Part shown: in pieces, positions 12,644-48,911 of the stretch
Numbering within the stretch: position 1 is the stretch's first letter
Layout: each line of letters opens with the position of its first letter
NCBI GenBank assembly: GCA_964408485.1
Contig: CAYOZJ010000002.1
Location: 5,235-69,234, forward strand
Direction of reading: 5' to 3'
DNA length: 64,000 nt
Source: an uncultured Gammaproteobacteria bacterium
GTDB lineage: Bacteria > Patescibacteriota > Microgenomatia > Levybacterales > UBA12049
Notes under the pieces: generated by a model
What the model saw: the letters and a program-made list of their open reading frames with translations, nothing else
The model's database searches: none
Told to the model about the DNA's origin: nothing
Program-made: the position numbers and the translations under genes

Positions 12644-12673
12644 CAAAAATGAAAAAACCGCCTAGGAGGCGGT
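12644..12673 (-). terminator. intrinsic terminator between the regulator gene and valS
   Basis: Minus strand reads ACCGCCTCCTAGGCGGT, a 6-7 bp stem with a 3-nt loop, followed by TTTTTTCATTTTT. Confidence 0.5.
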
Positions 12674-12762
12674 TGTACATGATGTAACCGCCTTCCCTAA
12701 GAAGCAACGACTACAACGACAACTTGTTTTATCATACATGCATTATACTTCAAAAGAAGTTT

Positions 12763-14064
12763 TTAAACAATTAACTTATATCCTCTGGTCCTTACAGTCA
12801 CAATTTCCATATTCCCCATTTTCTTTAATTTCCCCCTAACCCGTGCAACAAGCCTATCTACAGACCAGTCAGAAACACCGTACTCTTTATATTCCGGCCA
12901 CACAATTTCAACAATTTTTTCTCTATCTACTACTTGGTTAGGAAATTTCTTTAGGAGTTCAAAAAGCATATGCTCTTTTTTACTAAATTCAATCACACTC
13001 TCATCAAGACGTTTCTTTCCGCTTCCTTCAACAAAAAGTTCAAACAATGGACTAAAAAGTCTTACTCTCCCCTTTTCCTCCATGACAAATCCTGTATTCC
13101 ACAGATACTTTCCAGCTTCTCTTTCTGCCTCACTAATCTTTCTTTCTTCATATACCTTTTTGGCAATATCCTGCTCCTGACGAGTCAAGCTTTCCCATAA
13201 TTCCTCTGACTGAAGTGCCACCCGCTCATCTGCCTCTATTGCCGCAACAACATCTTCCTCCAAAAGTATCTTTTTCTTGAGTGACAGTTCATGCAACACA
13301 ACAAGAGATAACTGCAGATACTGCGCGTGGCCTCCAGACAGATCGATAATAAGCTGTCTCAGAGGCAATGGAACAGAAAGATCATACTTGTCTGCAAGTG
13401 TTGTAAAAAGAGTATCCATGTCTCTTGTCTCTGCAGGATGCAGATACATGGTTGTAGCAAAAGAGGACATATTTTGCTTTGGGAAAGTGTCTGGCGCAAG
13501 CACATCAAGTTCTCTATAAGAAGTAAAGACATACGAAAGTTTTTGATTTGTTGCGTCCTGCAATGCATGGAGATTGTTTAGAAATCCAGGATTTACTGCA
13601 TCTTTAAGGCGATCAAATCGAAGAAGAAAAATAGTAGGATAAATTTGTGCCTTAACAAGCTCAGCGAGAGACTCTCGTACGCCGTCGAATGTTAGAAATG
13701 CATCTCCTGACTGAATGCTTGCAACAAAGAGGTCGTTAATTTTTTGTTTTATTTTTGTATCCAGAAGTGTATTTTCTACTGCATCAACTAGTCGCTTAAA
13801 GGTGAGTCGCCAAAAAGGAAAGATTTCTCGTTCTATCAAATTGTTCAAGTCAACGGGAATAAAAAGATTTTTTCCATCTTGTGGCAAATAGAGCCTTCGA
13901 ATGTCTTTGTGGTAAAGGAAAAACCTGAGAAAATTACTAATGCCAACTCGCTTCATACCCAACAACTGCACGCTTTGTCTGTGTTGAATATGTGTCCCTA
14001 AAACTTTTGCGTCTTTCTCGCGAAAAAGTAATGGGTACTGCATTTCTGTGACATTTGCTTCCAT
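12763..14064 (-). CDS. transcriptional regulator with C-terminal OmpR/PhoB-type winged-helix DNA-binding domain and an N-terminal degenerate P-loop-like domain. Paralog of 38397..39764.
   Basis: The C-terminus (LFELLKKFPNQVVDREKIVEIVWPE...SVDRLVARVRGKL...IVTVRTRGYKL) is a trans_reg_C-type wHTH. The N-terminus (SVQLLGMKRVGISNFLRF) aligns to SLQLISLPGAGRNFVLNL of the paralog. It is Walker-A-like but lacks the Lys. Confidence 0.5.
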   Translation of the reverse strand: MEANVTEMQYPLLFREKDAKVLGTHIQHRQSVQLLGMKRVGISNFLRFFLYHKDIRRLYLPQDGKNLFIPVDLNNLIEREIFPFWRLTFKRLVDAVENTLLDTKIKQKINDLFVASIQSGDAFLTFDGVRESLAELVKAQIYPTIFLLRFDRLKDAVNPGFLNNLHALQDATNQKLSYVFTSYRELDVLAPDTFPKQNMSSFATTMYLHPAETRDMDTLFTTLADKYDLSVPLPLRQLIIDLSGGHAQYLQLSLVVLHELSLKKKILLEEDVVAAIEADERVALQSEELWESLTRQEQDIAKKVYEERKISEAEREAGKYLWNTGFVMEEKGRVRLFSPLFELFVEGSGKKRLDESVIEFSKKEHMLFELLKKFPNQVVDREKIVEIVWPEYKEYGVSDWSVDRLVARVRGKLKKMGNMEIVTVRTRGYKLIV

Positions 14065-14177
14065 GTTGGGGCTATTATAGCTTTTTTACCTTTTATTTAC
14101 CAATTTGCTTTGTCTGGGAAAAGTCAGAACACTTATCTTGTCAGACTTATTGAATTCAACTATACTGACACTACTCT

Positions 14178-25678: not shown

Positions 25679-27019
25679 ATGACGCAACCGCTAGACGCTA
25701 TTTGGACCACTGTTTTGTCGGGAATAGAAAAAGAAGTATCTCGAGCTAATTTTTTGACTCTTTTCAAGCAAACTGCACTCATTTCTTTTGATGAGGGGAT
25801 CGCAACCGTTGCCGCACCCTCAACAATGGTTATTGACCTTCTCCAGAAGCGTTTCTTACCAATCATAAAACTTGCCTTAGAAAAAGAATTCAAACAAGAC
25901 GTAGATGTACTTTTTGTTACAAAAACCTTTACCTCTTCTCAAAAAGAGCAAGACACACCGCTTTTTACAAATACTCAGACTACGACCAAACCTCTCATCG
26001 GTCATTTACCCCGAGTAAGACCCGATTTTACCTTTGAAACACTTGCTGTCTCGGACTCAAACCGCTTAGCATACGAATCTTCCAGAAATGTTGCTAAAAA
26101 TCCTGGCAAATCATATAACCCGCTTTTTATTTACGGTCCTGTGGGAGTAGGCAAAACCCACCTTATGCAAGCAGTCGCTAACGAGGTTTATTCACAAAAT
26201 CCCGACAACAAAATCATTTACATAACGAGTGAAGAATTTACCAATGAAGTGGTTGAGGCAATTCGCTCCAATGACACAGCTAAAATGAAGAGGCGTTTCC
26301 GCTCGGCTAATTTGCTTATCATTGACGACGTGCAATTTATCGCAGGAAAAGATAGGGTCCAAGAAGAGCTGTTTCATACTTTTAATAGCCTTATTGACGG
26401 CGGGGCACAAATTGTATTGTCATCAGACAGACCGCCAAGCGAAATCAAAAAGCTTGAAGCGCGACTTTCGTCTCGTTTTGCAGGCGGACTGACTGTTGAC
26501 GTTGAGGCACCGGATTTTGAATTGCGAACAGCAATTGTTTTAAAAAAAGCAGAAAAGGTTGGCTTTGCCATATCGATTGACGCAGCAAAAATTTTAGCTG
26601 AAAAAGAGCAAGACGTGAGATCTCTTGAGGGGATGCTCCTTCGTGTTGCAACACTTTCCAAGGGGGGAGACCTACATGAAAGCGAAATTCGTCGCATGCT
26701 GGGTTCTGCAGATCTGGACAACAAAACTCATGCAATTCATGCAGACGACCTGATTGATGCAATATGTCAATTTTATAATGTCAAAACAACGCAGCTAAAG
26801 GGACCGAAGAGGGACGCTTCGCTTGTTAAAGCTCGTCAAATTGCCATGTATCTTCTTAAGCACGAATTGGGTCTTACGCTTGTTGAAATAGGAAATATCT
26901 TGGGTGGACGGGACCATACCACCGTAATGCACGGTGTGGATAAGATGGCACATCTTGTGGAAAAGAAGGGATTTTTGTCTGAGGAAATTGTGGGGATAAA
27001 AAACAGGATTAGGGGATAA
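25679..27019 (+). CDS. dnaA: chromosomal replication initiator DnaA
   Basis: 446 aa. Walker [11 protein letters not shown], Walker [10 protein letters not shown], and the C-terminal DNA-binding signature KARQIAMYL...TL.EIG...GGRDHTTV.H. Confidence 0.95.
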
Positions 27020-27163
27020 TATGTGTACTAGAAGATTTGACCAAAGCTATCAACATATTATCCCAAGAGTTGTCCACATGGTTATCCACACAAAATCCGT
27101 GGCTGCTCCGTTGCTTTTTTCCACATTTCCCGATACACTACAACAACTACAAATATTTATTAT
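27020..27163. promoter_or_regulatory. putative oriC (dnaA-dnaN spacer with clustered DnaA boxes plus an AT-rich tract)
   Basis: TTGTCCACA at 27070..27078, TTATCCACA at 27082..27090 and TTTTCCACA at 27117..27125, all in the same orientation. An AT-rich stretch at 27126..27163 is a candidate DNA-unwinding element. Confidence 0.55.
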
Positions 27164-28258
27164 ATGAAAGTAACTATACTGGCAGAAAACCTTCAAAAGA
27201 AATTATCATTTGCCAATAAGGCAATCTCTACGAGAAATCAATTACCTATACTTTCCCATGTCCTTCTTGAAGCAAAAGGAGAGAGACTCATTATTAGCAG
27301 TACGGATTTAGAAATTGGAATAGAAACATCTCTTCCAGCAACTATTGAAGAAGAAGGAGCAACAACAGTACCAGCAAAGCTTTTTCTAGAATTAGTTAAC
27401 TCTCTTCCTCAAGATAAAATAATACTTACTACAGTGGACGGCTCATTAGAAATAACGAGTAAAAAAACAAAATCTCTTTTCCAAACAACCCCAAAAGACG
27501 AATTCCCTTTATTGTACGAAGAAAAAGGGGAGAAGGTTGCTGTTTTTACGAGAGGTAATATGAAGACAACATTTGGAAAAATCCTTTTTGCAGCAAGTAA
27601 TGAGACAACCCGCCCCGCACTCTCAGGAATTCTTTTTCAGAAAATGATAGATAAATTTCTTATTGTTGCAACAGATGGATATAGACTTTCTCTTGATGAG
27701 ATGCCTGAATCTGGAAAACAATCATTCGAAAAGCTTCTTATCCCAGCACGAATCTTACGTGAGGCAATGGGTGTTTTTGAGGACGGGGAAACAGACTTAT
27801 ATCTTTCAAGTAAAAACAATCAAATTATCTTTGAGCAAGAAGACACGCTTCTTGTTGGAAGAACAATTGATGCGACATTTCCAAATTTCGAAAAAGTAAT
27901 CCCAACCGATAGTGCAAGTGTTGCAGTGATAGATAAAGAAGAACTTTTAAAAGCAGTAAAACTTTGTGCGATTTTTGCCCGTGAGTCAGCAAATATTATT
28001 ACCCTTTCACTTTTGCGAGAAAAAATAGTTGTGAGTGCAAAATCTCCATCGCTTGGAGAGAATACAGTAGATGTAGAAGCGTCTCTTACAGGTGAGGAGA
28101 ATCAAATAGCCTTTAATGCACGATATCTTCTTGAGGCACTATCTAATATTCCGGAGAATGAGATAAATTTTTCTATGACAGGGCCATTAAATCCTGGGGT
28201 TTTCCGCATTCAGGGAAACATTAATTTTCTTCACTTGATTATGCCCATTAGGACATAA
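27164..28258 (+). CDS. dnaN: DNA polymerase III beta subunit (sliding clamp)
   Basis: 364 aa with a three-domain clamp. MKVTILAENLQKKL...ISTRNQLPILSHVLLEA. Confidence 0.9.
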   Translation: MKVTILAENLQKKLSFANKAISTRNQLPILSHVLLEAKGERLIISSTDLEIGIETSLPATIEEEGATTVPAKLFLELVNSLPQDKIILTTVDGSLEITSKKTKSLFQTTPKDEFPLLYEEKGEKVAVFTRGNMKTTFGKILFAASNETTRPALSGILFQKMIDKFLIVATDGYRLSLDEMPESGKQSFEKLLIPARILREAMGVFEDGETDLYLSSKNNQIIFEQEDTLLVGRTIDATFPNFEKVIPTDSASVAVIDKEELLKAVKLCAIFARESANIITLSLLREKIVVSAKSPSLGENTVDVEASLTGEENQIAFNARYLLEALSNIPENEINFSMTGPLNPGVFRIQGNINFLHLIMPIRT

Positions 28259-28259
28259 T

Positions 28260-28970
28260 TTATTGATACCGTATATCAAGTTTTTGAATTTCCTCATCGG
28301 TTAAACTAAGAGAGTGAAGCCAGGAAAGAAAATCACCTTTCCCGCTTGCTGCTTTCTGCGTAACAGTAAAGAAAAAGCTTCCACCTTCAGAATCAGAAAA
28401 GTCTGAAGTTACAGAAAAGCTGTCTGAATCGTAAGGCGTGTATGTTGCTAAATAAACATCTGGATAATTTTTTCGTTGTTCGCTGTCGGCGGTGGTCTGG
28501 AGATGATCATACTCTTGGGAAAGAGGAGCTACAGAATTGGATGAATTTCCTGTTGCAAACGTGCCAGTGAAGATAATATTGCCATCTTGGTCGAGAAACG
28601 AATAAGTATAAATTGTGTTGATATCAAGAGGTTGGGAAAATGCAATGATTATCTGATTGTTAGTTACTGTTGGCACAGATTCGATACTAGGATATATATT
28701 AAATGTTATGCCCGGCACAGGTTGGCTGAAGTTAGCTTTGATAGATGCGTTTGATAGAACGTTTTCTTCCTTGTCTTTCGGGGAAATGGATACTAAATGA
28801 ACAGAACTATTGATAATAGAGTTTGGTGCACTGATAGGTGTGGGCGTTGGAAGTGAGGACGGAAAAGGATTAAGTTGCGACTTCTGTCCTAAGCTGAAAA
28901 TCACCAAGCAAATGATGATGAGTATGACAATACTGCTAATAAGTATTAATTTCTTCATTGTTTTCTCCAC
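28260..28970 (-). CDS. signal-anchored secreted/surface protein (hypothetical), last gene of the T4SS-like operon
   Basis: 236 aa. N-terminal TM/signal (KKLILISSIVILIIICLVIF), a Pro/Thr linker and a β-rich ectodomain. Confidence 0.4.
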   Translation of the reverse strand: MEKTMKKLILISSIVILIIICLVIFSLGQKSQLNPFPSSLPTPTPISAPNSIINSSVHLVSISPKDKEENVLSNASIKANFSQPVPGITFNIYPSIESVPTVTNNQIIIAFSQPLDINTIYTYSFLDQDGNIIFTGTFATGNSSNSVAPLSQEYDHLQTTADSEQRKNYPDVYLATYTPYDSDSFSVTSDFSDSEGGSFFFTVTQKAASGKGDFLSWLHSLSLTDEEIQKLDIRYQ

Positions 28971-30136
28971 CAGCCTAAAATATTTGCCCCACGCCCTAGA
29001 TTGTCATTTAAGTTAGTCCATCGAAACCACGTAACGCCATGGCGATAATTTGCTTCAACCACACGAATAGTAAACTCATTACCCTGAACAGTTACAACAG
29101 TGGCAATATGTCCTGGGTCTGATCGCCCAGTGCTTCCATAGATAATTATATCCCCTGGAGCAATCGCTCCCCCAGCTTGATTTATTTTACTTGTTGTACA
29201 ACCACCAACGCGATATGGATTACAGATAAAGCTATATCCGGCTTGTCTATGGCCAGAGTTCATGGAGTACCATTGAAAAACACTTCCCACATTCCCTGGG
29301 AATACTGGCCAACCCAGTAAGTGTTGCGCAGACCAAATAAATTGTCCGCACTGAAAATTCGGGTATGTGGCATTAAGGTTGTTTTTAAATGATTGTGGAA
29401 TATTTAGATTTCTGACACAAGATGGATATGGTGCATGTGCGCCACCACCTTCACAAGTAAGAATTTGATTAACTGCATTAACCAATCCACCAAGAGAGCC
29501 AGATGGGACAGGGATTCCTCCAGATCCTCCGGCGTCTTGTGGCGGATTTCCAATAGCAATATCAAGAGACTGTATGGTTTTGTATGTAATTTGTTTAATT
29601 GGGGTGGGGAAAACTTGTTTGCCTTGCGTTGGTGACGGTAAGAGGGCACAAAAACTCAATGGGAAATCTTGTCCGGCTTGGTCTGGATTAGCAAAAGATG
29701 GTGTTTGCACAATAATATTAAGCCTGCACGCTTCTTCGGGAGAAATATGAAGTAGGGTAAGGATGTTTTGTTCGGCAATTCCTCTCGTCGTATCGAACGG
29801 TCCAGTAATAGTAACAAGAAATTGATTTGAGCCGGGTAAATAAACAATTCGATACTCATCCTTATCTGCTAATGCACGGTCTCCTTCGGGATCAAAGGGA
29901 GTTGTGGATTGATAAAAATTATCTGTTGTGACCCCATCAATTGTTATCGTATTTCCTGTGGGAATAGGGGCCGTAGTAGGATGAGTAACAGGAAAAAGTG
30001 GCTCAACAGGTGTGGGGGTAACAGTGTTGCTTGGCGTTGGTACCGATTTTTTGGGAAGATATAAAAAACCAACAACAAGCAGAATAGCAATAAAAAGAAG
30101 CCCACCAATAAGTAATCGAATCTTTGTCATATGCAT
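28955..30136 (-). CDS. membrane-anchored CHAP-domain peptidoglycan amidase/peptidase
   Basis: 393 aa. N-terminal TM anchor. The C-terminal CHAP signature has the catalytic Cys (NFQCGQFIWSAQH) and His (DPGHIATVVTV). Confidence 0.6.
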   Translation of the reverse strand: MHMTKIRLLIGGLLFIAILLVVGFLYLPKKSVPTPSNTVTPTPVEPLFPVTHPTTAPIPTGNTITIDGVTTDNFYQSTTPFDPEGDRALADKDEYRIVYLPGSNQFLVTITGPFDTTRGIAEQNILTLLHISPEEACRLNIIVQTPSFANPDQAGQDFPLSFCALLPSPTQGKQVFPTPIKQITYKTIQSLDIAIGNPPQDAGGSGGIPVPSGSLGGLVNAVNQILTCEGGGAHAPYPSCVRNLNIPQSFKNNLNATYPNFQCGQFIWSAQHLLGWPVFPGNVGSVFQWYSMNSGHRQAGYSFICNPYRVGGCTTSKINQAGGAIAPGDIIIYGSTGRSDPGHIATVVTVQGNEFTIRVVEANYRHGVTWFRWTNLNDNLGRGANILGWWRKQ

Positions 30137-30145
30137 ATTATATAG

Positions 30146-32284
30146 TTAGAAACACTTTCCTTTCTCAGCATGCCAGGGACCGTCCCAATTATTGCCTGCC
30201 GAGCGATAGAGACTTACTGCTGCTTTTACGTTGTTGGTTGGATTTTTCATAAAATTTGCGCAGCTATTTTCAAGGGATTGGTTTGCAATTTTGCATATAC
30301 CAGAACTATAACTAATGTTTTGGGCACACGACCTGGATACTAGGTCTCCATGTGCTAAAAGATTTATTTGAAATAAACCCACACTATAGTCTTTTGTCCC
30401 GCCTCGCAGACATGCACTATTAATAATTCCCGGATCTCCGCCGCTTTCGTGTTTGCAGATGCAACTTGCTACTGTTCCTTCTTTCTGTCCGCCAAAAAAT
30501 GGAGCAAGCGCTGTTGGACTACAGGAGCCTGATGCAAGCACAGGTTGACCTACTCGTACCGCACCAGTCGTATTAGCAGTTGTGGATTGATTTAGCCCAG
30601 GCGGTCCGCTCCCAAGTGCGTAGGCTGCAGTGATTTGGTTGTGAAGAATAATATCTTTTTCAGTGGGCGTTAGTGTTACATTAAATTCCCAGTGCTTATT
30701 AGATGCCGTTGAGTTAGGTAGGGGGGTATTTGCATCAAGATTCCAAGTAATGGAGTTGCCAGTCAACACGTGTTGTCCTGTAATACTATTTGCAACAATA
30801 GTGGCAGTCGTGGGAATTTGATCCGTTATAACCAACGAGTACTGGCCTGTGTAGTTAATATCAATGAGATATTTAATATTTTGTCCATTTAAATACGTTG
30901 TTTTGCCAGACGGGTCAGTAGTAAGGGTGAGAGTGAGCCCGGGAATTGGCGCAGTTCCTCCAGAGGGAGGGGGCGTATTAGAGAGAAGGATAATAATAAA
31001 TGCAGCAGCAAGTATAAGACCTAAGATTATTACAACTGCAACGAGAATAATGATAATGCCCAAAAGTACCTCTGGATCAATACCAAGCAGTAGAGCTAAT
31101 CCCTCAAAGCCACCTTGTCTTGCTGCAGCTCCTGCCACTAGCTCCTCTCCTTTTCTTGTTGTGTTTGCCAACTTTCTTCCTTCTCTTCCAGCATTTCTCA
31201 CTGCGTTGCCTGCTTGATTGACGAGTTGTCCTGTGCGACCATTTTGTTTTTGTTGTGTCGAACCCTGAAAGCTTCTTTGGGGAATTGCTTCCGGCTGCTG
31301 TTGAGAATAGTTTGCATGCTCAATTGCCGTATGAACGGTGTCTTCATACCCTTCATCAATTGTTGTGTTGTACGAAAAACCATACCTACCAAATTGTCTT
31401 ACTGCATCGTCGAGTGCAACTGATTGCCATTGATTGTCAAACGCCGTTCCAAGTCGTTGTAGTGCTAAGGAACGCATTGCGTCTGTCTGATCTGCATTTT
31501 GCGGTTGACCCCGAAGTGCTGCTTTTATGCTCTCGGCATTATATTGTTCTGTTTTTCGTTGGTTAAGAAGTTCTTGTGATTGATTACGTAATGCTTCGTC
31601 TGAAAGTGCCATGTTTTGGGTTTGCAGAAGCGGTGCAAGACGCGCATTGCCCTGTTTGCTTAGCTCGTCCAATTGTTGGGTAAGATCTTTTTTGTCTGCA
31701 TACAAGGATTGCGCTTGTGCCTGAAGTATTTTGTATTGATTTCCTAAAATTCCCGCAGCACTTAAATGAGTTCGGTAGAAATTTTCAATTGCGTCAGGAA
31801 GATCCTTCTCCGAGGTTGTGTCGAGAAGATGCTTAAAAGCATTAATCGTAGCAATTTTTTGCGTTTGCTTCAGTTTTTCGCTAGCTATATCTTTTGGATC
31901 CGGTCTACTGCTTCCGCCACCGTGATTTTCGGACTTTTTGGGAAGAATGCTCGCAAGCGTAGATGTTTGAGGTGGAGGAGTTTCTTGATTTGATACGGGT
32001 CCTGAAGTAGTAGGTGCGCTAAGGGGCTTACCCCATGCTAAAGCTTCTTCGAAAGTATTCTTTTCATCTCTTTCTAAGGAAAAAGGGTGCTCTTTGCCGT
32101 ATTCTTCAGCATACGCATGAATAAGCTCTCGGGCTAAGCGAGGAAAATTTTCATTATCATTAAGTCTTGCTGCTTGGCGTAATTCCTGAAGTCGGTCAAA
32201 AAGCTCTCGATTTCCCGCCCGTGCAGTTCGATCGAGAAATGCATAAAAACCATCCCACGTATTTGGAGCGTGATCATTGTCCAT
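30146..32284 (-). CDS. large bitopic protein with C-terminal VirB1/IagB-type lytic transglycosylase (SLT) domain
   Basis: 712 aa. A roughly 400-aa cytoplasmic N-domain without a P-loop, one TM (LGIIIILVAVVIILGLILAAAFIIIL) and an extracellular repeat region. The C-terminus carries CKHESGGDPGIINSA...GTKDYSVGLFQINLL, which matches the ES…DYGLMQIN signature of VirB1/IagB lytic transglycosylases. Confidence 0.6.
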   Translation of the reverse strand: MDNDHAPNTWDGFYAFLDRTARAGNRELFDRLQELRQAARLNDNENFPRLARELIHAYAEEYGKEHPFSLERDEKNTFEEALAWGKPLSAPTTSGPVSNQETPPPQTSTLASILPKKSENHGGGSSRPDPKDIASEKLKQTQKIATINAFKHLLDTTSEKDLPDAIENFYRTHLSAAGILGNQYKILQAQAQSLYADKKDLTQQLDELSKQGNARLAPLLQTQNMALSDEALRNQSQELLNQRKTEQYNAESIKAALRGQPQNADQTDAMRSLALQRLGTAFDNQWQSVALDDAVRQFGRYGFSYNTTIDEGYEDTVHTAIEHANYSQQQPEAIPQRSFQGSTQQKQNGRTGQLVNQAGNAVRNAGREGRKLANTTRKGEELVAGAAARQGGFEGLALLLGIDPEVLLGIIIILVAVVIILGLILAAAFIIILLSNTPPPSGGTAPIPGLTLTLTTDPSGKTTYLNGQNIKYLIDINYTGQYSLVITDQIPTTATIVANSITGQHVLTGNSITWNLDANTPLPNSTASNKHWEFNVTLTPTEKDIILHNQITAAYALGSGPPGLNQSTTANTTGAVRVGQPVLASGSCSPTALAPFFGGQKEGTVASCICKHESGGDPGIINSACLRGGTKDYSVGLFQINLLAHGDLVSRSCAQNISYSSGICKIANQSLENSCANFMKNPTNNVKAAVSLYRSAGNNWDGPWHAEKGKCF

Positions 32285-32287
32285 AGG

Positions 32288-34078
32288 CTATTTTGCGCTC
32301 TGTCCGGTCTCTGTTGGTGACAAGCTGGCATGCTGGTTTTGCATTTTTTGAAGTTCTTCTGGATCTGAGGTAATAATATTATGCTCAAAAGGTGCAGCAA
32401 CAATTTGAATGGCAACGTGATTCTGTCCTGCAAAGAAGAGTCCTTGGCCAACACCGGATGAGAGAAGCATTTGTCTTTCGCCATCAGATAGATAGAATGT
32501 TTTCGCGACCGTGTCAATTTCTGAGGTACTCTGCTTTAAAAGAATCTGTATAGAGCTGTTAGAAAGAATTGCGCGACCATAATCACTTGAAAGGAAATCT
32601 TGTACGTCTTGAGTCGCTGTAGTGAGTCCTAGATAGTATTTACGAGCCCTTTTGGCAATGCTGTACATAAAGGATGCAGAATCTTCATGTTTCATTAAGT
32701 ACCATGCCTCATCAACAATAAGTAAGCGTTTTTTTAAAGATTTTCTGACACGAGTCCACACAAAGTCTAAGAGAATATGCATTGCAATGGGTCTAAGTTC
32801 GTCTTCCAAGTCCCGAAGAGAAAAAATCGTGAGAGGATTTGTGATATTGAAATTCGATTGTTGGTTAAAAATGCCAGAAAGACTGCCGGTGACAAATTTT
32901 TCCAAACGGAGGGCAATGTTTTGTGCTATTGGATCCTGTGTTTTTACTAATCTCTGATACAAATCCTGCAAAATAGGAGGCGTTTTTGTCTGGCTTGCCG
33001 GATCTGCAGTAATTCCCTTATCTGCATATGTTTCAACAAGTGCTCTGTCCAAAATTGCATCTTCAGCAGGATTAACTGCACCAAGCATGATTTTTAAAAG
33101 TGCTCGGATAGAAAGGATCTTAAGTCCTAATTCGTTTTCTCCTTCTTCATAGACTCCTGATAAGTCAAATGGATTAATTCTCACAGGACTTGTTGCTGAG
33201 AAATTCAAATATTCTCCCCCTAAGCTCTCTGCGAGCTTGCCGTATTCACTTTCAGGATCAACAACAATAACTTCTGTCCCAAACATAAATTGGCGCATGA
33301 TTTCAAGCTTAATGCTAAAGGATTTACCTGATCCTGATTTTCCAAAAACAACTTCGTTAGCATTCTCTAAAGAGTATCTGTCAAAAATAATAAGTGAGCC
33401 ATTTTGTTGATTTACGCCGTACAAAATGCCTTTGTCTTGCGTTAAGGTAGCAGAGGTAAAAGGAAATGTCGATGCGAGACTAGATGTGTCCATGTTGCGT
33501 GTAATCGACAATTTGTCTTGTCCAATCGGTAGCGTTGTTTTAAATCCCTCCTCCATCTGAAGCGTTGCTGGTTTTGCTGTTACTAAAAGAGAGGAGAGCG
33601 TGCTGGTCAATTTTTTAGTTGCTTGTTCTAGTTCTGCGCTGTCTGTTGATGAGAGGGCAATGTAAAGACTAAATTGAAAAAACCGTTCTATTCCTTTTGC
33701 CAATTCTGCCTGGAGTCCAAGGGCGTCAGAAAGTGCTGCTGCAACTTTGGGATTTTCTGGTTTCCCTTTTTCTTCATCGCTTGACATTGTTGCTTCCATC
33801 TCGGCGATTTTGCGCTTTAAATTAGACAACACATCATCAGTAAAAATTGGATAGACAAACATACTAATTGCTAGAGAGTGATCAAAATCAATAACAGGGG
33901 ATAGCCACCCGACTGATACATATCGAGGGTAGCCAGAAACAAAAAATGTTCTGTAGAAATGATTACCGACACGAATCGTCTTAAAGTCTACCTCAACTTT
34001 TGTTGGGGCAATAGCATCTGCTGCATTGCCGGCTCCCTCAATAGATACTTCTTTAGATTTTTTAGTAAAAAGCGCCAT
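32288..34078 (-). CDS. virB4: VirB4/TrbE/CagE-family type IV secretion ATPase
   Basis: 596 aa. Walker A VFGKSGSGKSF, Walker B LLIVDEAWYLM, and the GLTTATQDVQDFL motif. Short, Gram-positive-like length. Confidence 0.85.
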   Translation of the reverse strand: MALFTKKSKEVSIEGAGNAADAIAPTKVEVDFKTIRVGNHFYRTFFVSGYPRYVSVGWLSPVIDFDHSLAISMFVYPIFTDDVLSNLKRKIAEMEATMSSDEEKGKPENPKVAAALSDALGLQAELAKGIERFFQFSLYIALSSTDSAELEQATKKLTSTLSSLLVTAKPATLQMEEGFKTTLPIGQDKLSITRNMDTSSLASTFPFTSATLTQDKGILYGVNQQNGSLIIFDRYSLENANEVVFGKSGSGKSFSIKLEIMRQFMFGTEVIVVDPESEYGKLAESLGGEYLNFSATSPVRINPFDLSGVYEEGENELGLKILSIRALLKIMLGAVNPAEDAILDRALVETYADKGITADPASQTKTPPILQDLYQRLVKTQDPIAQNIALRLEKFVTGSLSGIFNQQSNFNITNPLTIFSLRDLEDELRPIAMHILLDFVWTRVRKSLKKRLLIVDEAWYLMKHEDSASFMYSIAKRARKYYLGLTTATQDVQDFLSSDYGRAILSNSSIQILLKQSTSEIDTVAKTFYLSDGERQMLLSSGVGQGLFFAGQNHVAIQIVAAPFEHNIITSDPEELQKMQNQHASLSPTETGQSAK

Positions 34079-34080
34079 AA

Positions 34081-34671
34081 TTATTCGCTATATACATCAT
34101 GAAAAAGTTTTACCAATTCTGCTCCTGTAATAATCCGTGCACGAAGATTCATTCGGTCGATTTGAGAGAGAAGGCTTTCTGCTTTTGTCTTGAGTCCTGC
34201 ATGCGCCCTGATGAAGAAGTCATCAAGATTATCACTTCCCATTTTTGCAACTCCACCAATACCTTCTTCTAGAAGGGAGTAAGAAATAACAAAAAAGAAT
34301 TGTTTATCTAGGACTGTTGTTGATGTAACTAAGTCTTTAACAAACGATTGATATTGAAGAATGTCTTGGGAAAGCTTAGGGTTATTGGCTTTTTGGGAAG
34401 CAATGCCTAAGGAGTCGATATATGGGAGAATATTGACTTGTTTGCTACGCATGACAATTTGTACAGGGAAAGAAAGAGAATTAAGAAGTCCTGCGTAACC
34501 ATATACTTTCGCGTCCTGTTCCTCGCTTGATAAAAGGGCAAAATTTACTGCCTGGAGCTCGATAAGTAGGCAGGCATTGCCTCCTTTCATCAAAACAGTA
34601 TCCTCTCGAATGTCCAGGACTTCGGTAAAGGATTGCGTTGATTTTGCGTGATGTTGGGCAGCTTGTTTCAT
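34081..34671 (-). CDS. hypothetical cytoplasmic protein, co-transcribed upstream of virB4 (2-nt gap)
   Basis: About 197 aa from the internal Met; no motif. Could be a separately encoded VirB4 N-terminal or accessory domain (inference). Confidence 0.35.
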   Translation of the reverse strand: MKQAAQHHAKSTQSFTEVLDIREDTVLMKGGNACLLIELQAVNFALLSSEEQDAKVYGYAGLLNSLSFPVQIVMRSKQVNILPYIDSLGIASQKANNPKLSQDILQYQSFVKDLVTSTTVLDKQFFFVISYSLLEEGIGGVAKMGSDNLDDFFIRAHAGLKTKAESLLSQIDRMNLRARIITGAELVKLFHDVYSE

Positions 34672-34672
34672 A

Positions 34673-35848
34673 TTATCCAAAGAGCTCTTTGCGCAAATCT
34701 TCCCGTGCGTCAATTGAGATAACCTCAAGTGGTTGGAGAATGTCTCCAATTGCTTGGAGTTCTATTGTGTCAAAGCGCTGTTTGCTGTTAGGGTCTTCGA
34801 AGGTAAGCGTGTATGTGCCGTTGATAACAGGCGTTGCGGAAGCAAATTGTCCTAATGGATTTGTTTTAAAAGCTCGTACTGGATTTTCATCTTTATCTTT
34901 TACTTCAATTAAAATATTTGGTAGCACATTACCTCTAGGGTCTTTAACAACGCCGCAAATAAGATTGGGAGTATCGCTGACAAAAGGAGCACCTACTATT
35001 TTTGATTGCCCTGGTGCTACTTGCCTTACGTTTTCAGTAATCTTTGGCGTAGGAGCGCTAGACGGCGTAAATACCTGTTGGGGCTTTTGCGATAGCTGCT
35101 TTTGGAGCTCAAGTAGTTTTGTCTCAAGTTCTTGTTTTTGGGCACGAATTGATTGAAGCTGAGATTCTAAGTCGCCCACTTTTTCATGGGCCTCTTCGGC
35201 TTCTTTTTGGTCATGCGCCGCTCCTTCTTGTTGTTTTGCTGCAGCAATTTCTTTTGCCAAATCCACCGCCTCTTTACTTAGCTCTTGCTGATTTGTTTCT
35301 TCGTTTGTTGTGTTGCTTTGCGCGGAAACTGGGGCAATGGGCGTGCTTGCAAGTTGTATGGTAGGTATCTCTTGAGGTTTTTGCTCTTCAAAAAGCTTCT
35401 GGAAGGAAGTGCTGTCAACAGGCGTTACTAGTTGCACTTTTTCTTCCTTTTCTTCTCTCTTTTCCTCTTTTTTTTCCGGTTGATTGTCTACTGTTGTGGT
35501 TGGGGTAGGTGCATCATCAGATGATTTATACGTATATTGTGTTGGCGAGAAAACAGCCTTAAAGAAGTAAAAGATCATGCTGTCTGCTGGTCGTCCAGCA
35601 AGTGGGATAAAAGCCAAAATAACCCCAGAACCTGCAAAAAAAACAATAAGCGGCAGTTTTATGAGAATAAAAACAGGAAGAGACAGACTTATCCATGCCA
35701 ATACAACACCTGCGGCAAGGTAAGCAAATTGCTTAATGGTCATATCGCCAATTAAGCGAAATTGAAATCCTGTAACATCTTGTGGAATAGGATGATTATC
35801 CATATAAAAAAGTGTATGACGTGAAAAATCCCATTGCAACCCTTTCAA
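34673..35848 (-). CDS. T4SS-associated bitopic membrane protein: VirB3-like TM hairpin, coiled coil, and C-terminal β-sandwich domain
   Basis: 391 aa. N-terminal PIPQDVTGFQFRLIGDMT followed by two TM helices gives a VirB3/TrbD-like topology. A Glu/Lys/Gln-rich coiled coil follows. The C-terminus resembles a carboxypeptidase-regulatory-like β-sandwich (GVVKDPRGNVLPNILIEVKD...NGTYTLTFE). Confidence 0.35.
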   Translation of the reverse strand: MKGLQWDFSRHTLFYMDNHPIPQDVTGFQFRLIGDMTIKQFAYLAAGVVLAWISLSLPVFILIKLPLIVFFAGSGVILAFIPLAGRPADSMIFYFFKAVFSPTQYTYKSSDDAPTPTTTVDNQPEKKEEKREEKEEKVQLVTPVDSTSFQKLFEEQKPQEIPTIQLASTPIAPVSAQSNTTNEETNQQELSKEAVDLAKEIAAAKQQEGAAHDQKEAEEAHEKVGDLESQLQSIRAQKQELETKLLELQKQLSQKPQQVFTPSSAPTPKITENVRQVAPGQSKIVGAPFVSDTPNLICGVVKDPRGNVLPNILIEVKDKDENPVRAFKTNPLGQFASATPVINGTYTLTFEDPNSKQRFDTIELQAIGDILQPLEVISIDAREDLRKELFG

Positions 35849-36569: not shown

Positions 36570-36890
36570 CTACTGACATGTTCCAAATCCAAACGAAAGA
36601 ATGCACGTGACTCCTGTAATGCCCGCAACAAGACCGATAATAAAAAATGAAAGAAGGACAATGATGAGACCGATAATGGCATAGGTGACAATATTTTTTG
36701 CTTCTTCAACGCCCTTGCCTCCACCGGAGGTTATATATTTAATGCTTGCAAAAAGAAGCATAAAAAGAGAAGCAAGCCCCACAAGATAAATAGCCGCACC
36801 TACTCCAATTCGGTATAGCGGAATAATGCAGGAAAGTGTTGGAATACCATTTACTACGCAGTCTTGACCATTAACAATCCATGAACTCAT
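36570..36890 (-). CDS. VirB2/TrbC-like pilin candidate (paralog 1 of 4)
   Basis: 106 aa with two hydrophobic helices flanking the ASIKYITSGGGKGVEEAKNIVTYAIIGLII core. Conserved with the other three paralogs. Confidence 0.5.
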   Translation of the reverse strand: MSSWIVNGQDCVVNGIPTLSCIIPLYRIGVGAAIYLVGLASLFMLLFASIKYITSGGGKGVEEAKNIVTYAIIGLIIVLLSFFIIGLVAGITGVTCILSFGFGTCQ

Positions 36891-36931
36891 ATATGTAGCC
36901 TATCAGAGAGAAAATAAGAAAACAAGAGAAG

Positions 36932-37327
36932 TTACCTTGTTAATGTAGGGAGCGTAAGATTAAATAGACTTACACCAACAAACAAGTTAAGAACAAAGTT
37001 GACGATGAGATAAGAAAGAAAAATAATAACAAGGCCAACAACAGCTGCCACTATTGTTTCGCGTGCTTTGTTAACGCCTTCTTTTTCTCCTTGAGACGTA
37101 AGCCACTTGACGCCGCCAAGAATCAAGAAAACTAATGCCAGCATGGCGGCAACAACAAAAACAAAATTAATTGCATTACCGATTACTTTATTTAAATCAG
37201 AGGCTCCAAGACAAAGAGCGCTAAAGTTACCAGGGGGACATGCATTAATGTTAACATCTGCAAATGCAATAGGAGCAAGAAATGCAGAAAGACTGAGCGT
37301 GCCGATTGAGGCAAATAATTTCTTCAT
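36932..37327 (-). CDS. VirB2/TrbC-like pilin candidate (paralog 2; Sec signal peptide)
   Basis: 131 aa. Signal peptide ...APIAFA|DV. Core LILGGVKWLTSQGEKEGVNKARETIVAAVVGLVIIFLSYLIV. Confidence 0.55.
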   Translation of the reverse strand: MKKLFASIGTLSLSAFLAPIAFADVNINACPPGNFSALCLGASDLNKVIGNAINFVFVVAAMLALVFLILGGVKWLTSQGEKEGVNKARETIVAAVVGLVIIFLSYLIVNFVLNLFVGVSLFNLTLPTLTR

Positions 37328-37367
37328 TGACTCTATCGTAGAAACAATTCTTTATCTTGTCAAGTCG

Positions 37368-37706
37368 CTAGTTGCCAAGAAGATGTACGCCAAACGTGAA
37401 ACCAATGAAGTTAATAATAAAAAATGACAAAAGAGCGAGAATAAGGCCGACAATCGCATATTGGATTGTTTTTTGTGCACCCTCCAACTGCTTTTTGTCT
37501 CCTTGAGACGTAATCCATTTTATTCCCCCAAACATAATAAAGAAAAATGAAAGTAAGATTACTGCAACAAATATGCTAATAATGACAAAAGAAACAATGC
37601 TTTGGATCGAGTTATTGTTCATGAGATTGCGTATTTGATTGGGAACGAGCACAGGATAGGTTGCTGGTTCATCTGGGTTGCCAATAACAAGAGCAAGATA
37701 CCTCAT
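37368..37706 (-). CDS. VirB2/TrbC-like pilin candidate (paralog 3)
   Basis: Start at the internal Met (37706). Core IMFGGIKWITSQGDKKQLEGAQKTIQYAIVGLILALLSFFII. Confidence 0.5.
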   Translation of the reverse strand: MRYLALVIGNPDEPATYPVLVPNQIRNLMNNNSIQSIVSFVIISIFVAVILLSFFFIMFGGIKWITSQGDKKQLEGAQKTIQYAIVGLILALLSFFIINFIGFTFGVHLLGN

Positions 37707-37707
37707 A

Positions 37708-38355
37708 TTATTTCCTAAAACCTGGAATTTGGAGAATATCAACGCCAATAAATTGCAAGATAACCACAGAGAAGATGATAAATATTAACCCAACAATTGC
37801 AGCAGTTAGTCTTTCCCTTGCTTCTTTTACTTTTTCAGGATTACCCTGTGACGTAATCATTTGGTATCCTGCAGCAATAACAAGAAGAATCGCAACCCCC
37901 CCGGAAAGTCCAAGAAGAATACCAAAGGTGCTTTTTACGAATCCCGCAACGGTTGTTTGAATGGGTCCAAAAGCAGTATCAACGCTTGCACATGTTCCAT
38001 TGGCATAGGTTTTGCATGGCGGAGCTAAGTATGGTGATGGTGAAGGGGGAATGGGTTTATTTTTATCTTTTGGCTCACAGCAATAGCCCGAACCCAAGAA
38101 GCCGCATTTTGGAACACATGGGCCAGTATCCCACAGGAATAAGCCACACCTACTACTTGTTCCATATTTGTATGAAGCATTAGGGGCTCCGTTAATAGTG
38201 CAGTTGTCACCCGGTTTTGGATTAGAAGCATTGGCATCTTGCGGCTGAGCGTTGCAATAGTTTGGATAATTACAGTCAGCCTGTACGTTTCCTAATGTGG
38301 CAAGGGTTAGGCAGAAGAAAACAAAGATAAAGACTCCTATTTTGAAGAATTTCAT
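37708..38355 (-). CDS. Cys-rich ectodomain fused to a VirB2/TrbC-like pilin module (paralog 4)
   Basis: Signal peptide MKFFKIGVFIFVFFCLTLATLGNVQA. A roughly 110-aa domain carries about 12 Cys (DCNYPNYCN...CGFLGSGYCCEP...). The C-terminus reads GYQMITSQGNPEKVKEARERLTAAIVGLIFIIFSVVIL. Confidence 0.5.
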   Translation of the reverse strand: MKFFKIGVFIFVFFCLTLATLGNVQADCNYPNYCNAQPQDANASNPKPGDNCTINGAPNASYKYGTSSRCGLFLWDTGPCVPKCGFLGSGYCCEPKDKNKPIPPSPSPYLAPPCKTYANGTCASVDTAFGPIQTTVAGFVKSTFGILLGLSGGVAILLVIAAGYQMITSQGNPEKVKEARERLTAAIVGLIFIIFSVVILQFIGVDILQIPGFRK

Positions 38356-38396
38356 ATATCTATCGTCCCACATGCTATCTTTGATTGTCAAGAAAA

Positions 38397-39764
38397 TTAT
38401 TGCTCGAATCGTATCCCTCTGCCTTTAACAGTGAGAATATGGATAGGTTTTGTGGGATCCTCTTCAATTTTCTTTCGAAGACGTAAGATGAGTTGGTCAA
38501 GTGCTTGCTCACTTACTCCAGATTGTGTTTTTGTGTCTGACCAAACAGTAGTAATAATTGTTTCTCGGTCAACAATGGTTCCTTGTTGTTTGAGAAGAAG
38601 TCGAAGTAAGCGAAACTCAGAAAACGTAAGCGTATCGGAGATAGGTTGTTCATCCTGATTGATTGTATTTGTTGATTCATCAAGCACAATTTTTGTAGAT
38701 ATATGTTTTGTGCTTTCTGTTTTTACATATTGTGCAAAAAGAGGAATGGTAATTTTTTGATTGTGAATAAGTCCAACGCTTTGAAGGAATTCGCTGGGGA
38801 GAGGGCAGTTGCCATTCTTGCAAAGCATGAGCATATCTTGTCTCTCATCTGGCGTTAGGAAGAGCCACAATTCCTTCAGTACTCCTTGGATGCCCTTTGT
38901 TCTGAGAAGAGATTTTTCAGTAGCACCGGCAAGAAGCGCTTCAAGCCCAAGCTTAGTGAGTTTGCCATGCCAGCCGGTAAGTGCAAGAAGCTTTTCAATG
39001 TATGACTCTGGTAATTTTTTCCCTGCAAGTTTTTCTAAGTAACGTAGGCGAAAGTCAAACCCAATGCGATCTTCAAGCTGTAGATAGATTGTGTTGTCCA
39101 CAACAAATTCATAAAAATCAGAAAAGATTTCTGGTTCAAGCATATCCTCCAGAGGACGTGTCGATGAGAAGACAATGGAAAAGGCATATTTTGCTCTGCT
39201 GCGAATGCTTCGCAAATTGTTAAAAAATTCTTCACTTGCCTGAGGGACAAAGGTTTCAAACCGGTCAAATAAAAAAATAATATGTAATTTTTTCTCAAGA
39301 GTTAGGTAATCAAATGCATCTTTAAGCTTCTGAAACAAAACCAACTCATCGTTATACGAAAGTGCTTCCTTAAAAAGCTTGTCTACCATTAAAAACTCTT
39401 CTTCTTTGCGTCTCTCATGCAGGCTAGATGCAAGCTCAAGAAAGAAGAATTTCATTATGTCAAAAAGAGACCTGTTTTTGATTTCTGAGAAATGAATTAA
39501 AACAAAATGATAGACCTCCTGCTTTGCCTCTCCTACATGGTGAATTCGTATATTTCTGTTATACGTTAATAAATTCAAGACAAAATTTCTTCCGGCTCCA
39601 GGCAGCGAGATAAGCTGAAGAGATTTACCAGCGTTAATTGCAGAAAAGATTTCTCCGATTTCTTTCTCGCGGGTAGTTGCCGGATAAAGAGATTCTAAGC
39701 GCTCCGCTTCATAATTGACTATTGAAGAGTGATTATTGACAATTGACCTGGATTTATTTTTCAT
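38397..39764 (-). CDS. transcriptional regulator, C-terminal OmpR/PhoB-type wHTH with N-terminal degenerate P-loop-like domain. Sits immediately upstream of the pilin genes on the same strand.
   Basis: 455 aa. The C-terminus (FSEFRLLRLLLKQQGTIVDRETIITTVWSD...ALDQLILRLRKKI...ILTVKGRGIRF) is a trans_reg_C wHTH. The N-terminal SLQLISLPGAGRNFVLNLL is paralogous to 12763..14064. Confidence 0.5.
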   Translation of the reverse strand: MKNKSRSIVNNHSSIVNYEAERLESLYPATTREKEIGEIFSAINAGKSLQLISLPGAGRNFVLNLLTYNRNIRIHHVGEAKQEVYHFVLIHFSEIKNRSLFDIMKFFFLELASSLHERRKEEEFLMVDKLFKEALSYNDELVLFQKLKDAFDYLTLEKKLHIIFLFDRFETFVPQASEEFFNNLRSIRSRAKYAFSIVFSSTRPLEDMLEPEIFSDFYEFVVDNTIYLQLEDRIGFDFRLRYLEKLAGKKLPESYIEKLLALTGWHGKLTKLGLEALLAGATEKSLLRTKGIQGVLKELWLFLTPDERQDMLMLCKNGNCPLPSEFLQSVGLIHNQKITIPLFAQYVKTESTKHISTKIVLDESTNTINQDEQPISDTLTFSEFRLLRLLLKQQGTIVDRETIITTVWSDTKTQSGVSEQALDQLILRLRKKIEEDPTKPIHILTVKGRGIRFEQ

Positions 39765-40116
39765 AGCTATTGCCCTTCGCTGTTTTAATAGAACTCACGA
39801 ATATCTTTACGATTTGAATTCCTTCATCAATCAAAATATCAAACTTTTTCCTCAATGACGGATTTATCTCAGCAAGCAGATCAAGCCAATAGACAGTTTC
39901 ATGTGCTTCCTTGCGACAAATATTTATTATATGTGTGAAGTCTAACTTTGTGTCTGCAAATATGGCCTCAGCATAGTTAGCTCCTATTGACGATACCGAT
40001 CTTATGAGCTGTTTTGCGAAAACAATGTTTTCCTGAGTTTTTGGAAGACTTCTTAATAAGAAAATAGTTTCTAGAACAAATTTTTTAATTCTTCCAGACA
40101 GCTCCTTACTTGTCAT
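39754..40116 (-). CDS. four-helix-bundle protein (23S rRNA intervening-sequence protein family)
   Basis: 120 aa. SIGANYAEA resembles the hallmark motif of the family (…SVGANIAEG…). Confidence 0.5.
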   Translation of the reverse strand: MTSKELSGRIKKFVLETIFLLRSLPKTQENIVFAKQLIRSVSSIGANYAEAIFADTKLDFTHIINICRKEAHETVYWLDLLAEINPSLRKKFDILIDEGIQIVKIFVSSIKTAKGNSYEK

Positions 40117-40147: not shown

Positions 40148-40201
40148 TAGTCAATTTATCCTATGGTCAATAATCAATTGTAAATAATAAATAGTCAATT
40201 T
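40148..40201. repeat. direct repeats TAGTCAATTT x2 (40148..40157, 40192..40201) in the divergent promoter region
   Basis: Two exact 10-mers 44 bp apart, with a related GTCAATAATCAATT between them. Candidate operator sites. Confidence 0.35.
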
Positions 40202-40262
40202 CGTAATGGTTTTGTGAGGTAAATATCAAGGAAAAATCTTGAGTTAATTCTACAATACGCTC

Positions 40263-48909: not shown

Positions 48910-48911
48910 TG

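Follow-up and report, generated by a model that had tools for sequence, protein, structure and literature searches.

Patescibacteria have tiny genomes with few recognisable regulators. What controls a type IV secretion system (T4SS) and its array of pilin genes in such a bacterium? We approached this question through a 64,000-nucleotide stretch of contig CAYOZJ010000002.1 (assembly GCA_964408485.1, positions 5,235 to 69,234; hereafter the window), placed by GTDB in the Levybacterales of the Microgenomatia. Two open reading frames (ORFs) on its minus strand, which we call regulator A (12763..14064, 433 aa) and regulator B (38397..39764, 455 aa), had been singled out by an initial annotation as paralogs that join a degenerate P-loop-like domain to an OmpR/PhoB-type winged helix-turn-helix (wHTH). 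We find it likely that A and B are anciently duplicated one-component regulators of a Microgenomatia-type patescibacterium, in which a pseudo-nucleoside triphosphatase (pseudo-NTPase) switch is fused to an OmpR/PhoB-type wHTH, with A regulating its own gene and B acting on the pilin array.

Regulators A and B are paralogs over their whole length

BLASTP aligned A and B end to end (23% identity, E 9e-23), and the segment pairs SVQLLGMKRVGISNFLRF / SLQLISLPGAGRNFVLNL and LSGGHAQYLQL / LTGWHGKLTKL fell together in this alignment. When the wHTH was excluded, residues 1-350 of A and 1-372 of B still shared 22% identity over 301 aa and scored 59 bits (E 2.6e-14), whereas 200 shuffles of this N-terminal comparison averaged 16 bits and never exceeded 24. 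Profile-profile comparison with hhalign, using alignments of 36 A-family and 37 B-family sequences, returned a probability of 100 (E 6.9e-42) over 422 columns. These comparisons bear out the shared architecture and alignable segments described in the initial annotation, and judged by them A and B are true paralogs over their whole length, including the part outside the wHTH. No third paralog was found within the window.

At 90% clustering the A family comprised more than 1,587 matches and the B family more than 726; the named matches of both were Patescibacteria, mostly Levybacteria/Levyibacteriota. Relatives carry A and B on the same contigs, 30 kb apart on one 275-kb JGI contig and 25 kb apart in the window, and this co-occurrence implies that the duplication is older than the diversification of the group. 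Many GTDB representative metagenome-assembled genomes with the Patescibacteria-specific gene for B (L008, L009, L011, L013 and others) are titled "uncultured Gammaproteobacteria bacterium", Eisenbacteria, Methylomirabilota or Acidiferrales; in the source records these names are probably placeholders or taxonomic errors.

Both proteins end in the winged helix that had been predicted for them. Pfam returned a single domain for A and for B, Trans_reg_C (PF00486), at each C-terminus: residues 357-431 of A (12772..12996, minus strand; E 7.6e-13, 48.8 bits) and residues 379-453 of B (38406..38630, minus strand; E 2.2e-17, 63.3 bits), with a cut-off of 26.2 bits. The same domain was present in 36/36 aligned members of the A family and 37/37 of the B family. 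Profile searches of PDB matched the DNA-binding domains of ArlR, ToxR, WalR and PhoB for A, and RegX3, WalR, KdpE and PhoB for B. For the modelled wHTH of B, Foldseek found the DNA-binding domains of OmpR, YycF and VicR as structural neighbours (TM 0.7-0.78), and comparison with 2d1v, 3zq7, 5za3, 6lxl and 1gxq gave target-normalised template modelling (TM) scores of 0.69-0.78 at root-mean-square deviations of 1.8-3.2 Å. We rejected the identification of A and B as two-component response regulators, since Pfam found no Response_reg match in either protein and their N-domains have an AAA+ fold by Foldseek; the statement in the initial annotation that this domain is not a receiver is correct on both counts. 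The NCBIfam response-regulator models covered only the C-terminal ~80-100 residues, with scores far under their cut-offs. No BTAD domain was matched in any A or B family member, and the SARP/AfsR-type layout is thus not present.

The N-terminal module has an AAA+/STAND-type fold with fixed, degenerate motifs

AlphaFold2 models built on the family alignments had a predicted local distance difference test (pLDDT) score of 89.3 for A and 89.8 for B. Both showed an alpha/beta base, a helical lid, a small winged helix, a linker helix and the OmpR-type wHTH. Combining the models with Foldseek and Pfam, we divided A into an AAA+/STAND-like base (residues ~1-210), the lid (213-291), the internal winged helix (295-336), the linker helix (339-352) and the wHTH; the ORF, the model and Foldseek gave B the same architecture. 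The first ~17-20 residues of B are a disordered, lineage-specific extension (pLDDT below 50 for residues 1-20), and the family start of B usually lies 6 codons before ESLYP. When the models were compared with PDB by Foldseek, a Walker-type ATPase of Pyrococcus (2qen) was the top match of A (E 4.7e-8) and the second match of B. Other matches, all with a probability of 1.0, were archaeal Orc/Cdc6 (1w5t), eukaryotic ORC4/5, the archaeal AAA+ protein 2fna, RuvB, MuB/TnsC and the STAND proteins CED-4 and Avs4. On these models, the N-terminal ~350 residues fold into an AAA+ module of the ORC/Cdc6 or STAND type, with base, lid and winged helix.

Sequence searches gave weak links to this fold. No P-loop family in Pfam matched A or B themselves, and family members gave sub-threshold matches to AAA_35, AAA_16 and AAA_22, of which AAA_35 was the commonest (11/36 A and 6/37 B). 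An attempt to tie the N-domain to solved structures by sequence was abandoned, as an N-domain-only profile found nothing significant in PDB and the single sequence and profile gave only sub-threshold P-loop alignments. The predicted fold nonetheless agrees with the earlier guess of a degenerate P-loop-like or STAND-like domain, and intact relatives of A and B match nSTAND1, AAA_22 and AAA_16; the superfamily that emerged is the one the initial annotation had named rather than an unrelated known family.

We next counted the nucleotide-binding motifs in 120 members of each family. In both models the Walker A-like loop forms the junction of strand 1 and helix 1. In A this loop is G-M-K-R-V-G-I-S (residues 36-43; 13936..13959, minus strand), with Ile at the position of the catalytic Lys in 120/120 proteins, G36 and G41 likewise in 120/120, and the whole G-M-K-R-V-G-I loop invariant; the canonical GxxxxGK[ST] motif was absent from all A-family proteins examined. 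The loop of B is S-L-P-G-A-G-R-N (residues 53-60; 39585..39608, minus strand), in a family whose consensus is G-L-P-G-V-G-R-S. Here the Lys position is Arg in 115 of the 120, Lys in 4 and Gly in 1, and P55 and G56 are present in all. The loss of the Walker A Lys noted earlier thus holds across the A family and in nearly all of the B family. The following residue is Ser (76) or Asn (42) in A, and Ser (52), Gly (35) or Ala (27) in B.

The Walker B region differs more sharply between the two. A carries R-F-D-R, in which F, D and R are invariant (120/120), and the column of the Walker B Asp is occupied by L, T, I or S; its only acidic residue near that column is D151, at +3. Residues of the remodelled pocket of A include K38, R39, R149, D151, R152 and T181. 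B carries [D/E]-R-F-E, with D/E167 (67 D, 52 E) and E170 in a DxFEE-like arrangement. In the lid, GGHPGL of intact relatives is replaced by GGH[VAL]QY in A and GGHGKL in B, and the lid Pro (GxP) is lost in both. In A, therefore, Walker A Lys, Walker B Asp and lid Pro are all gone, whereas B lacks the Lys (now Arg), the conserved Ser/Thr and the Pro but keeps a DxFEE-type Walker B. Conservation of this kind indicates that the degenerate motifs are fixed and under strong, strict purifying selection rather than decaying. It is nearly certain from these motifs that the module of A no longer cycles nucleotide, and probable that the module of B does not either; nucleotide binding and hydrolysis would be lost in A and impaired in B. 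A subclade of B with divergent pilins (L009, L013, L017, L020, L021, L025, L034, L035, L037, L046, L048-L052, L063, L065, L066 and others) has the P-loop G-I-P-G-V-[S/N]-R-S-T, in which the second P-loop Gly is also lost.

Intact relatives place the pseudo-NTPases in an apparently active family

An exhaustive phmmer search of 1.84 billion representatives, with the N-domain of A as query, recovered a small, closed family of 516 clusters (E <= 1e-3), whose full-length members are all ~380-480 aa. Lys occupies the Walker A position in 30/99 full-length representatives. These relatives typically have GxxxxGK[ST], a Walker B of the form hhD[EDQR]F[DE] and the lid motif GGHPGL, and 9/10 of those scanned carry a C-terminal Trans_reg_C. 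They match nSTAND1, AAA_22, AAA_16, ATPase_2, AAA_35 and NB-ARC, some above Pfam thresholds (nSTAND1, 36 bits with a cut-off of 27.1; AAA_22, 37.9 bits with a cut-off of 27). The same architecture with an intact NTPase is thus already in the databases, unannotated; one cluster, from Chloroflexota, is described merely as "winged helix family transcriptional regulator". In the two contexts examined, the Lys-bearing (K-type) relatives had no pilin linkage.

In a neighbour-joining tree of N-domains, the states of the Walker A Lys, Walker B Asp and lid Pro were K-D-P in intact sequences, R-D-(G/A/M) in B-like sequences and I-(I/L/V/N)-(V/I) in A-like sequences. The B-like sequences were monophyletic and nested among K-type sequences, and the A-like sequences formed a separate clade. 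The tree and the motif states together suggest that A and B branched off independently from an apparently active STAND-wHTH family and that one has degenerated further than the other. Provisionally, then, the two lineages would have lost their NTPase motifs independently.

Regulator B is tied to the T4SS pilin array

B lies directly upstream of four VirB2-like T4SS pilin genes (36570..38391, minus strand; individually 37708-38391, 37368-37748, 36932-37327 and 36570-36890), the first of which begins 6 nt after B. All four match PF18895 (T4SS_pilin), with E values of 8.5e-9, 9e-5, 2.5e-10 and 1.4e-5. Around them lie a PrgI/VirB3-like gene, a VirB4-type ATPase, SLT_3 and CHAP hydrolases and TrbL/VirB6, and the complete Gram-positive-type T4SS cluster, which also includes Big_5, occupies 25679-36890 and 43839-45647 of the window and adjoins dnaA-dnaN. 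This layout agrees with the arrangement given for Microgenomatia in PMC12102498, which describes pilin arrays of 2-11 genes and names no regulator for them. Nor is a regulator for the T4SS or its pilin arrays named in PMC11665869. According to work cited in these two papers, the T4SS and VirB2-like pilin arrays were reported to be essential for epibiotic growth in the one species tested.

To assess how general this arrangement is, we collected 80 orthologous B loci (L006-L085) from GTDB species representatives and searched them with a pilin hidden Markov model made from the window genes; 69 loci had enough flanking sequence. At least two pilin ORFs were adjacent to B in 68/69 loci, co-directional and downstream in 39 and divergent from a common intergenic region in 29. 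That the linkage is kept across two gene orders is strong evidence for a functional tie, and the view of B as the likely pilus-locus regulator has strong backing from synteny.

Other features of this region are recorded here. Between the pilin array and the PrgI-like gene is an ORF for a membrane protein (35913-36569, plus strand) with an HELSH (HExxH) motif and no Pfam match; it was found in 14/82 B loci, always with the HExxH kept, and could be a metalloprotease that processes pilins. Near the T4SS cluster there are also a tmRNA (52819-53221) and seven tRNAs (45811-51800).

A repeated TGACA box precedes the promoter of regulator A

A consensus scan placed a predicted promoter of A at 14074..14103 (minus strand), with a -35 element TTGGTA (14103-14098) and a -10 element TATAAT (14079-14074), the end of which is 9 nt from the start codon (ATG from 14064). 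We compared 59 distinct upstream regions from A orthologs (loci L086-L165). A conserved -35 TTGCnAAA and -10 TAnAAT, the latter ending 6-11 nt before the ATG, occurred in 48/57 loci, and Shine-Dalgarno (SD)-like motifs in 6/59. The position of the promoter and the scarcity of SD motifs imply leaderless mRNAs, and the A mRNA of the window is probably leaderless too.

Upstream of the -35 element, A orthologs carry a repeated box. TGAC[AG] occurred 81 times on the forward strand, whereas shuffled sequences gave 19.9 +/- 4.4 copies (maximum 39) and the reverse strand carried 22. The distances between boxes peaked at 11 nt (18 pairs), 22 nt (7) and 33 nt (7). A pair spaced by 11 nt with at most one mismatch was found in 27/59 A loci, with 0.4 expected and 2 on the reverse strand, and the proximal TGACA box began 38-40 nt upstream of the -10 in 20/26 cases. 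Exact TGACA-N6-TGACA pairs numbered 31 in 418 kb of A loci, compared with 1 in 880 kb of B loci. The consensus of the pair is cTGACA-N6-cTGACA (consensus duplex ttcTGACAaaaacCTGACAaa). In the window, the candidate operator (14111..14144, minus strand) comprises CTGACA (14144-14139), CTGACT (14127-14122) and CAGACA (14116-14111), of which CTGACT and CAGACA are spaced by 11 nt and adjoin the -35 element; this copy, CTGACT-N5-CAGACA, has two mismatches and scores 12.8 bits with our position weight matrix (PWM) at 14108-14129.

The wHTH domains of the OmpR/PhoB family dimerise head-to-tail on direct repeats that are ~10-11 bp apart. By spacing, strand and position, the TGACA repeats have the geometry expected for such dimers at an activator position, and the simplest reading of their presence upstream of A is autoregulation by A. 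A PWM scan of the window for more A sites returned 2 matches of at least 10 bits with 3.1 expected, and no regulon could be called from it.

The initial annotation had placed A upstream of valS. This position is correct, as valS follows A in the window, and across orthologs valS is the gene immediately after A in 28/48 loci, while in 34/48 it shares the strand of A and is no more than 5 kb away. The data do not support the two as a regulatory unit, however: valS follows A directly in just those 28 loci, A has its own promoter, and an intrinsic terminator separates the genes (12656..12674, minus strand; AACCGCCT-CCT-AGGCGGTT followed by a T-run). A as a regulator of valS is not supported, given this terminator, the 28/48 adjacency and the lack of a TGACA pair in the spacer. 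The 5' arm of the terminator (AACCGCCT) could pair instead with an upstream AGGCGGTT at 12686-12693, which gives an attenuator-like layout before valS (12650-12693, minus strand). The A-valS hairpin had a fold z-score of -2.8, and the spacer matched neither a T-box nor any other Rfam family.

The control region of B is compact and interrupted in the window

The ancestral B promoter of the window, together with candidate B boxes, lies at 40200..40232 (minus strand; CCTTGATATTTACCTCACAAAACCATTACGAA), with a -35 element TTGATA at 40229-40224 and TGATA, TCACA and TTACG phased by 11 nt. It is near-identical to a promoter directly before B in L007. The promoter in co-directional loci has the form CTTGATATTT(-35)...TTACAAT(-10), and a spacer box TnACA, 11 nt after TGATA, is unusually conserved (~19 loci). 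TTACA-N6-TTACA occurred in 7/38 co-directional loci, with 11 nt as the sole recurrent spacing. In the divergent subclade, the start codons of the pilin and of B are ~95 nt apart, the conserved B promoter TTGAAG-N17-TAcAAT ends 6-7 nt before the ATG, and a block CAAGAGGAAGATTGAAGATTG is conserved at the back-to-back -35 elements. The layout is again leaderless: the -10 ends 6-7 nt before the ATG in 18/27 divergent loci, and SD-like motifs were found in 2/79.

What now separates the promoter from B in the window is a GTCAAT-rich segment and a gene of the 23S_rRNA_IVP family (39754..40116, minus strand; a four-helix bundle, PF05635, E 1.7e-16), which overlaps the start of B by 11 nt; the 17-aa disordered N-terminal extension that B has gained overlaps the end of the IVP gene. 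An IVP gene is present upstream of B in 7 other loci (L012, L015, L040, L041, L044, L053 and L075), ~390-430 nt from B; and just downstream of B in L031, L047, L051 and L078. In L092 and L096 the gene precedes A. Its typical place is between the promoter or operator of a regulator and the start codon of that regulator. Two readings fit this recurrence: a mobile cassette that favours one site of insertion, or a functional companion.

A pair of TAGTCAATTT repeats had been suggested as an operator for the locus. The repeats are real: this exact 10-mer occurs in the window solely at 40148 and 40192, and GTCAAT clusters at 39700-40300 (8 copies, 0.34 expected; 0/2000 random placements). The cluster is missing from the orthologous B loci, however, and lies in the inserted IVP segment, downstream of the conserved ancestral promoter. 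We therefore rejected TAGTCAATTT/GTCAAT as a B operator. The TGACA-N6-TGACA repeat before A is the better-supported candidate for an operator of these regulators. Three GTCAAT copies fall inside codons of the 17-aa extension of B (SIVN...SIVN), and the one GTCAAT that relatives show near -95 belongs to the codons for the AELT N-terminus of a divergent giant ORF.

This giant ORF (40263-43838, plus strand; 1191 aa, no Pfam domain) diverges from the B promoter region. Its AELT N-terminus is conserved, equivalents of 942 aa (L001) and 1693 aa (L002) exist, and it was detectable in 25/82 loci; it probably shares a compact control region with B. A 14-mer, CTTGATATTTACCT, present in just two copies in the window, is common to the B promoter and to that of a NUDIX-like ORF (45909-46337, minus strand; 142 aa; promoter ~46366-46338) named from its N-terminal SAGGIVF-type sequence. 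It may be a shared operator or an extended -35 element.

Alternative explanations

Several points weigh against the reading of A as an autoregulator and B as a pilin regulator, each built on a pseudo-NTPase. A clear box pair is present in only 46% of A loci, and the window copy is degenerate. Thirteen further box pairs lie upstream of A on the same strand, in variable islands with IVP genes, toxin-antitoxin modules and an AAA_14/DUF4143 ATPase; these extra pairs may have been duplicated by insertions into the promoter region, or may serve another role or protein. For both regulators, adjacency and the position of the motifs are correlative only, and DNA binding and regulation are predictions from them. 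On the side of B, the TGATA/TnACA/TTACA boxes are only candidate sites, as they are inseparable from core-promoter elements. A de novo Gibbs search of 38 + 29 B upstream regions recovered only purine/pyrimidine-rich low-complexity motifs (information content 12.7, compared with 9.9 for shuffled sequences); we claim no family-wide B operator from motifs so little above their controls. The branching order of the N-domain tree is provisional, as the tree is a simple neighbour-joining one and its sample is biased towards A-like sequences. Finally, with a Walker A Arg and an intact Walker B, B may still bind or slowly hydrolyse nucleotide.

This last point leads to the main rival for B, a retained nucleotide-dependent switch. 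Here B, and perhaps A, would still be a STAND switch: ATP or another nucleotide would occupy the modified pocket and, by its binding or its very slow hydrolysis, control oligomerisation and attachment to DNA, as in MalT/AfsR. Although B keeps G-x-P-G-x-G-R and, in D/E167 and E170, the acidic residues of the DxFEE of intact relatives, the Mg-coordinating Ser/Thr is not conserved in it, given the split of Ser, Gly and Ala at that position. The nesting of B-like sequences among K-type sequences and the persistence of Lys in 4/120 B favour a switch that still works, as does the strict purifying selection on the modified loops, which suggests that the pocket is still used; the loss of the adenine-contacting lid Pro in both families counts against it, and for A so do the replacement of the Walker B Asp by L/T/I/S and of the Lys by Ile in 120/120. 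We regard a retained nucleotide switch as unlikely, though far from negligible.

A second alternative concerns the boxes rather than the proteins. The TGACA-N6-TGACA pairs could serve a mobile cassette system as its target or attachment sequence, or be bound by another protein, and gather where variable genes insert. If so, the phasing of the proximal box 38-40 nt from the -10 in 20/26 loci, the spacings of 11, 22 and 33 nt and the strong strand bias would be hard to account for, and no recombinase is consistently adjacent. The thirteen same-strand pairs in islands of IVP, toxin-antitoxin and AAA_14/DUF4143 genes, the IVP genes between the box pair and A in L092 and L096, and the likeness across contigs of the sequences after some distal copies are all in its favour, but the same picture would arise if insertions into the promoter region had copied an operator. 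We consider a cassette site quite improbable.

We think it very improbable that A and B act on DNA topology, replication or segregation in the manner of ORC or DnaA near an origin: their fold is closest to Orc/Cdc6 and related initiators, the B/T4SS locus adjoins dnaA-dnaN and one K-type relative sits beside gyrB and gyrA, but the C-terminal domain is a canonical OmpR/PhoB effector, the boxes lie at promoter-defined positions, B tracks the pilin array in both gene orders and not the origin, A has no origin linkage, and the catalytic residues for initiator-type remodelling are lost.

A model for pseudo-NTPase regulators

Our preferred reading remains that A and B are duplicated pseudo-NTPase regulators of transcription. 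The module would descend from active NTPase-wHTH regulators in other bacteria such as Chloroflexota, and a pseudo-NTPase would have arisen independently in the A and B lineages. Because the altered motifs are invariant, the module has most likely been kept as a hydrolysis-independent switch or an oligomerisation scaffold. Such a scaffold, fixed or controlled by a ligand or partner, could set at least two wHTH domains head-to-tail on direct repeats one helical turn apart. A would bind boxes centred near -49 and -60 and autoregulate its leaderless gene; activation is the likelier direction, because the boxes are upstream of the -35 element. Beyond its own gene, A would probably have further targets in a TGACA regulon. 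From a compact region in which the TGATA/TnACA/TTACA boxes overlap the core promoter, B would regulate both itself and the VirB2-like pilin array next to it, and in the window B may now be co-transcribed behind the inserted IVP-family gene.

The closest known parallels are the STAND regulators, such as MalT and AfsR, in which the NTPase module controls multimerisation on arrays of sites. Like MalT of E. coli, AfsR/SARP-NB-ARC of Streptomyces and GutR, A and B fuse a P-loop NTPase module, lid and winged helix to a DNA-binding domain, and they would act on arrays of repeated sites. Unlike them, A and B lack a TPR/SUPR sensor arm, are much shorter (~440 aa) and have lost the catalytic motifs. MalT also differs in its LuxR-type HTH, whereas AfsR and other SARPs use an OmpR-type wHTH as well; in SARPs, however, this domain is N-terminal and followed by BTAD, whereas in A and B it is C-terminal and no BTAD is present.

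The best structural matches are ATPase_2 (PF01637; 2qen PABY2304, 2fna SSO1545) and AAA_35 (PF14516), with TM ~0.5-0.57 over ~370 columns (E 4.7e-8), and these share the base-lid-winged-helix layout and a GGH-type lid motif. They keep the Walker A Lys and have no OmpR-type DNA-binding domain, and the window proteins fall under the curated sequence thresholds of both families. Orc1/Cdc6 likewise combine an AAA+ module with a winged helix for sequence-specific DNA binding, and Sulfolobus Orc1-2, a non-initiator that acts as a global transcription regulator of the DNA-damage response (PMC9738581), shows that the fold can be repurposed for transcription control. A and B differ from them in being bacterial, in their extra, unrelated terminal OmpR-type wHTH, in the absence of catalytic residues and in having no detectable sequence homology to Orc1. 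With OmpR/PhoB response regulators and with ToxR, CadC and HilA, A and B share the effector domain, and the predicted 11-bp direct repeats upstream of or overlapping the -35 resemble pho boxes; A and B lack the receiver, the phospho-acceptor Asp and the membrane anchor, and their input would be a pseudo-NTPase. The pseudo-NTPase lineages, the tie of B to the pilins and the operator of A were not described in the literature that we searched.

Together, these data identify a conserved regulator physically tied to the pilin array in nearly every locus compared, and a paralog with a concrete, testable predicted operator. The family is also a clean natural example of a STAND/AAA+ switch that became a pseudo-NTPase twice and to different degrees, with the protein under strong selection each time, and so bears on how pseudo-enzymes are recruited as scaffolds. 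A further step, which we put forward tentatively and hold to be rather doubtful, is that the remodelled, invariant former nucleotide pocket has come to recognise another signal, for example a partner protein or a small molecule from the host or from metabolism, that B switches essential T4SS pilins in the epibiotic cycle, and that A is a master autoregulated factor with a TGACA regulon. If true, this would be the first defined transcriptional circuit of its kind in the Candidate Phyla Radiation.

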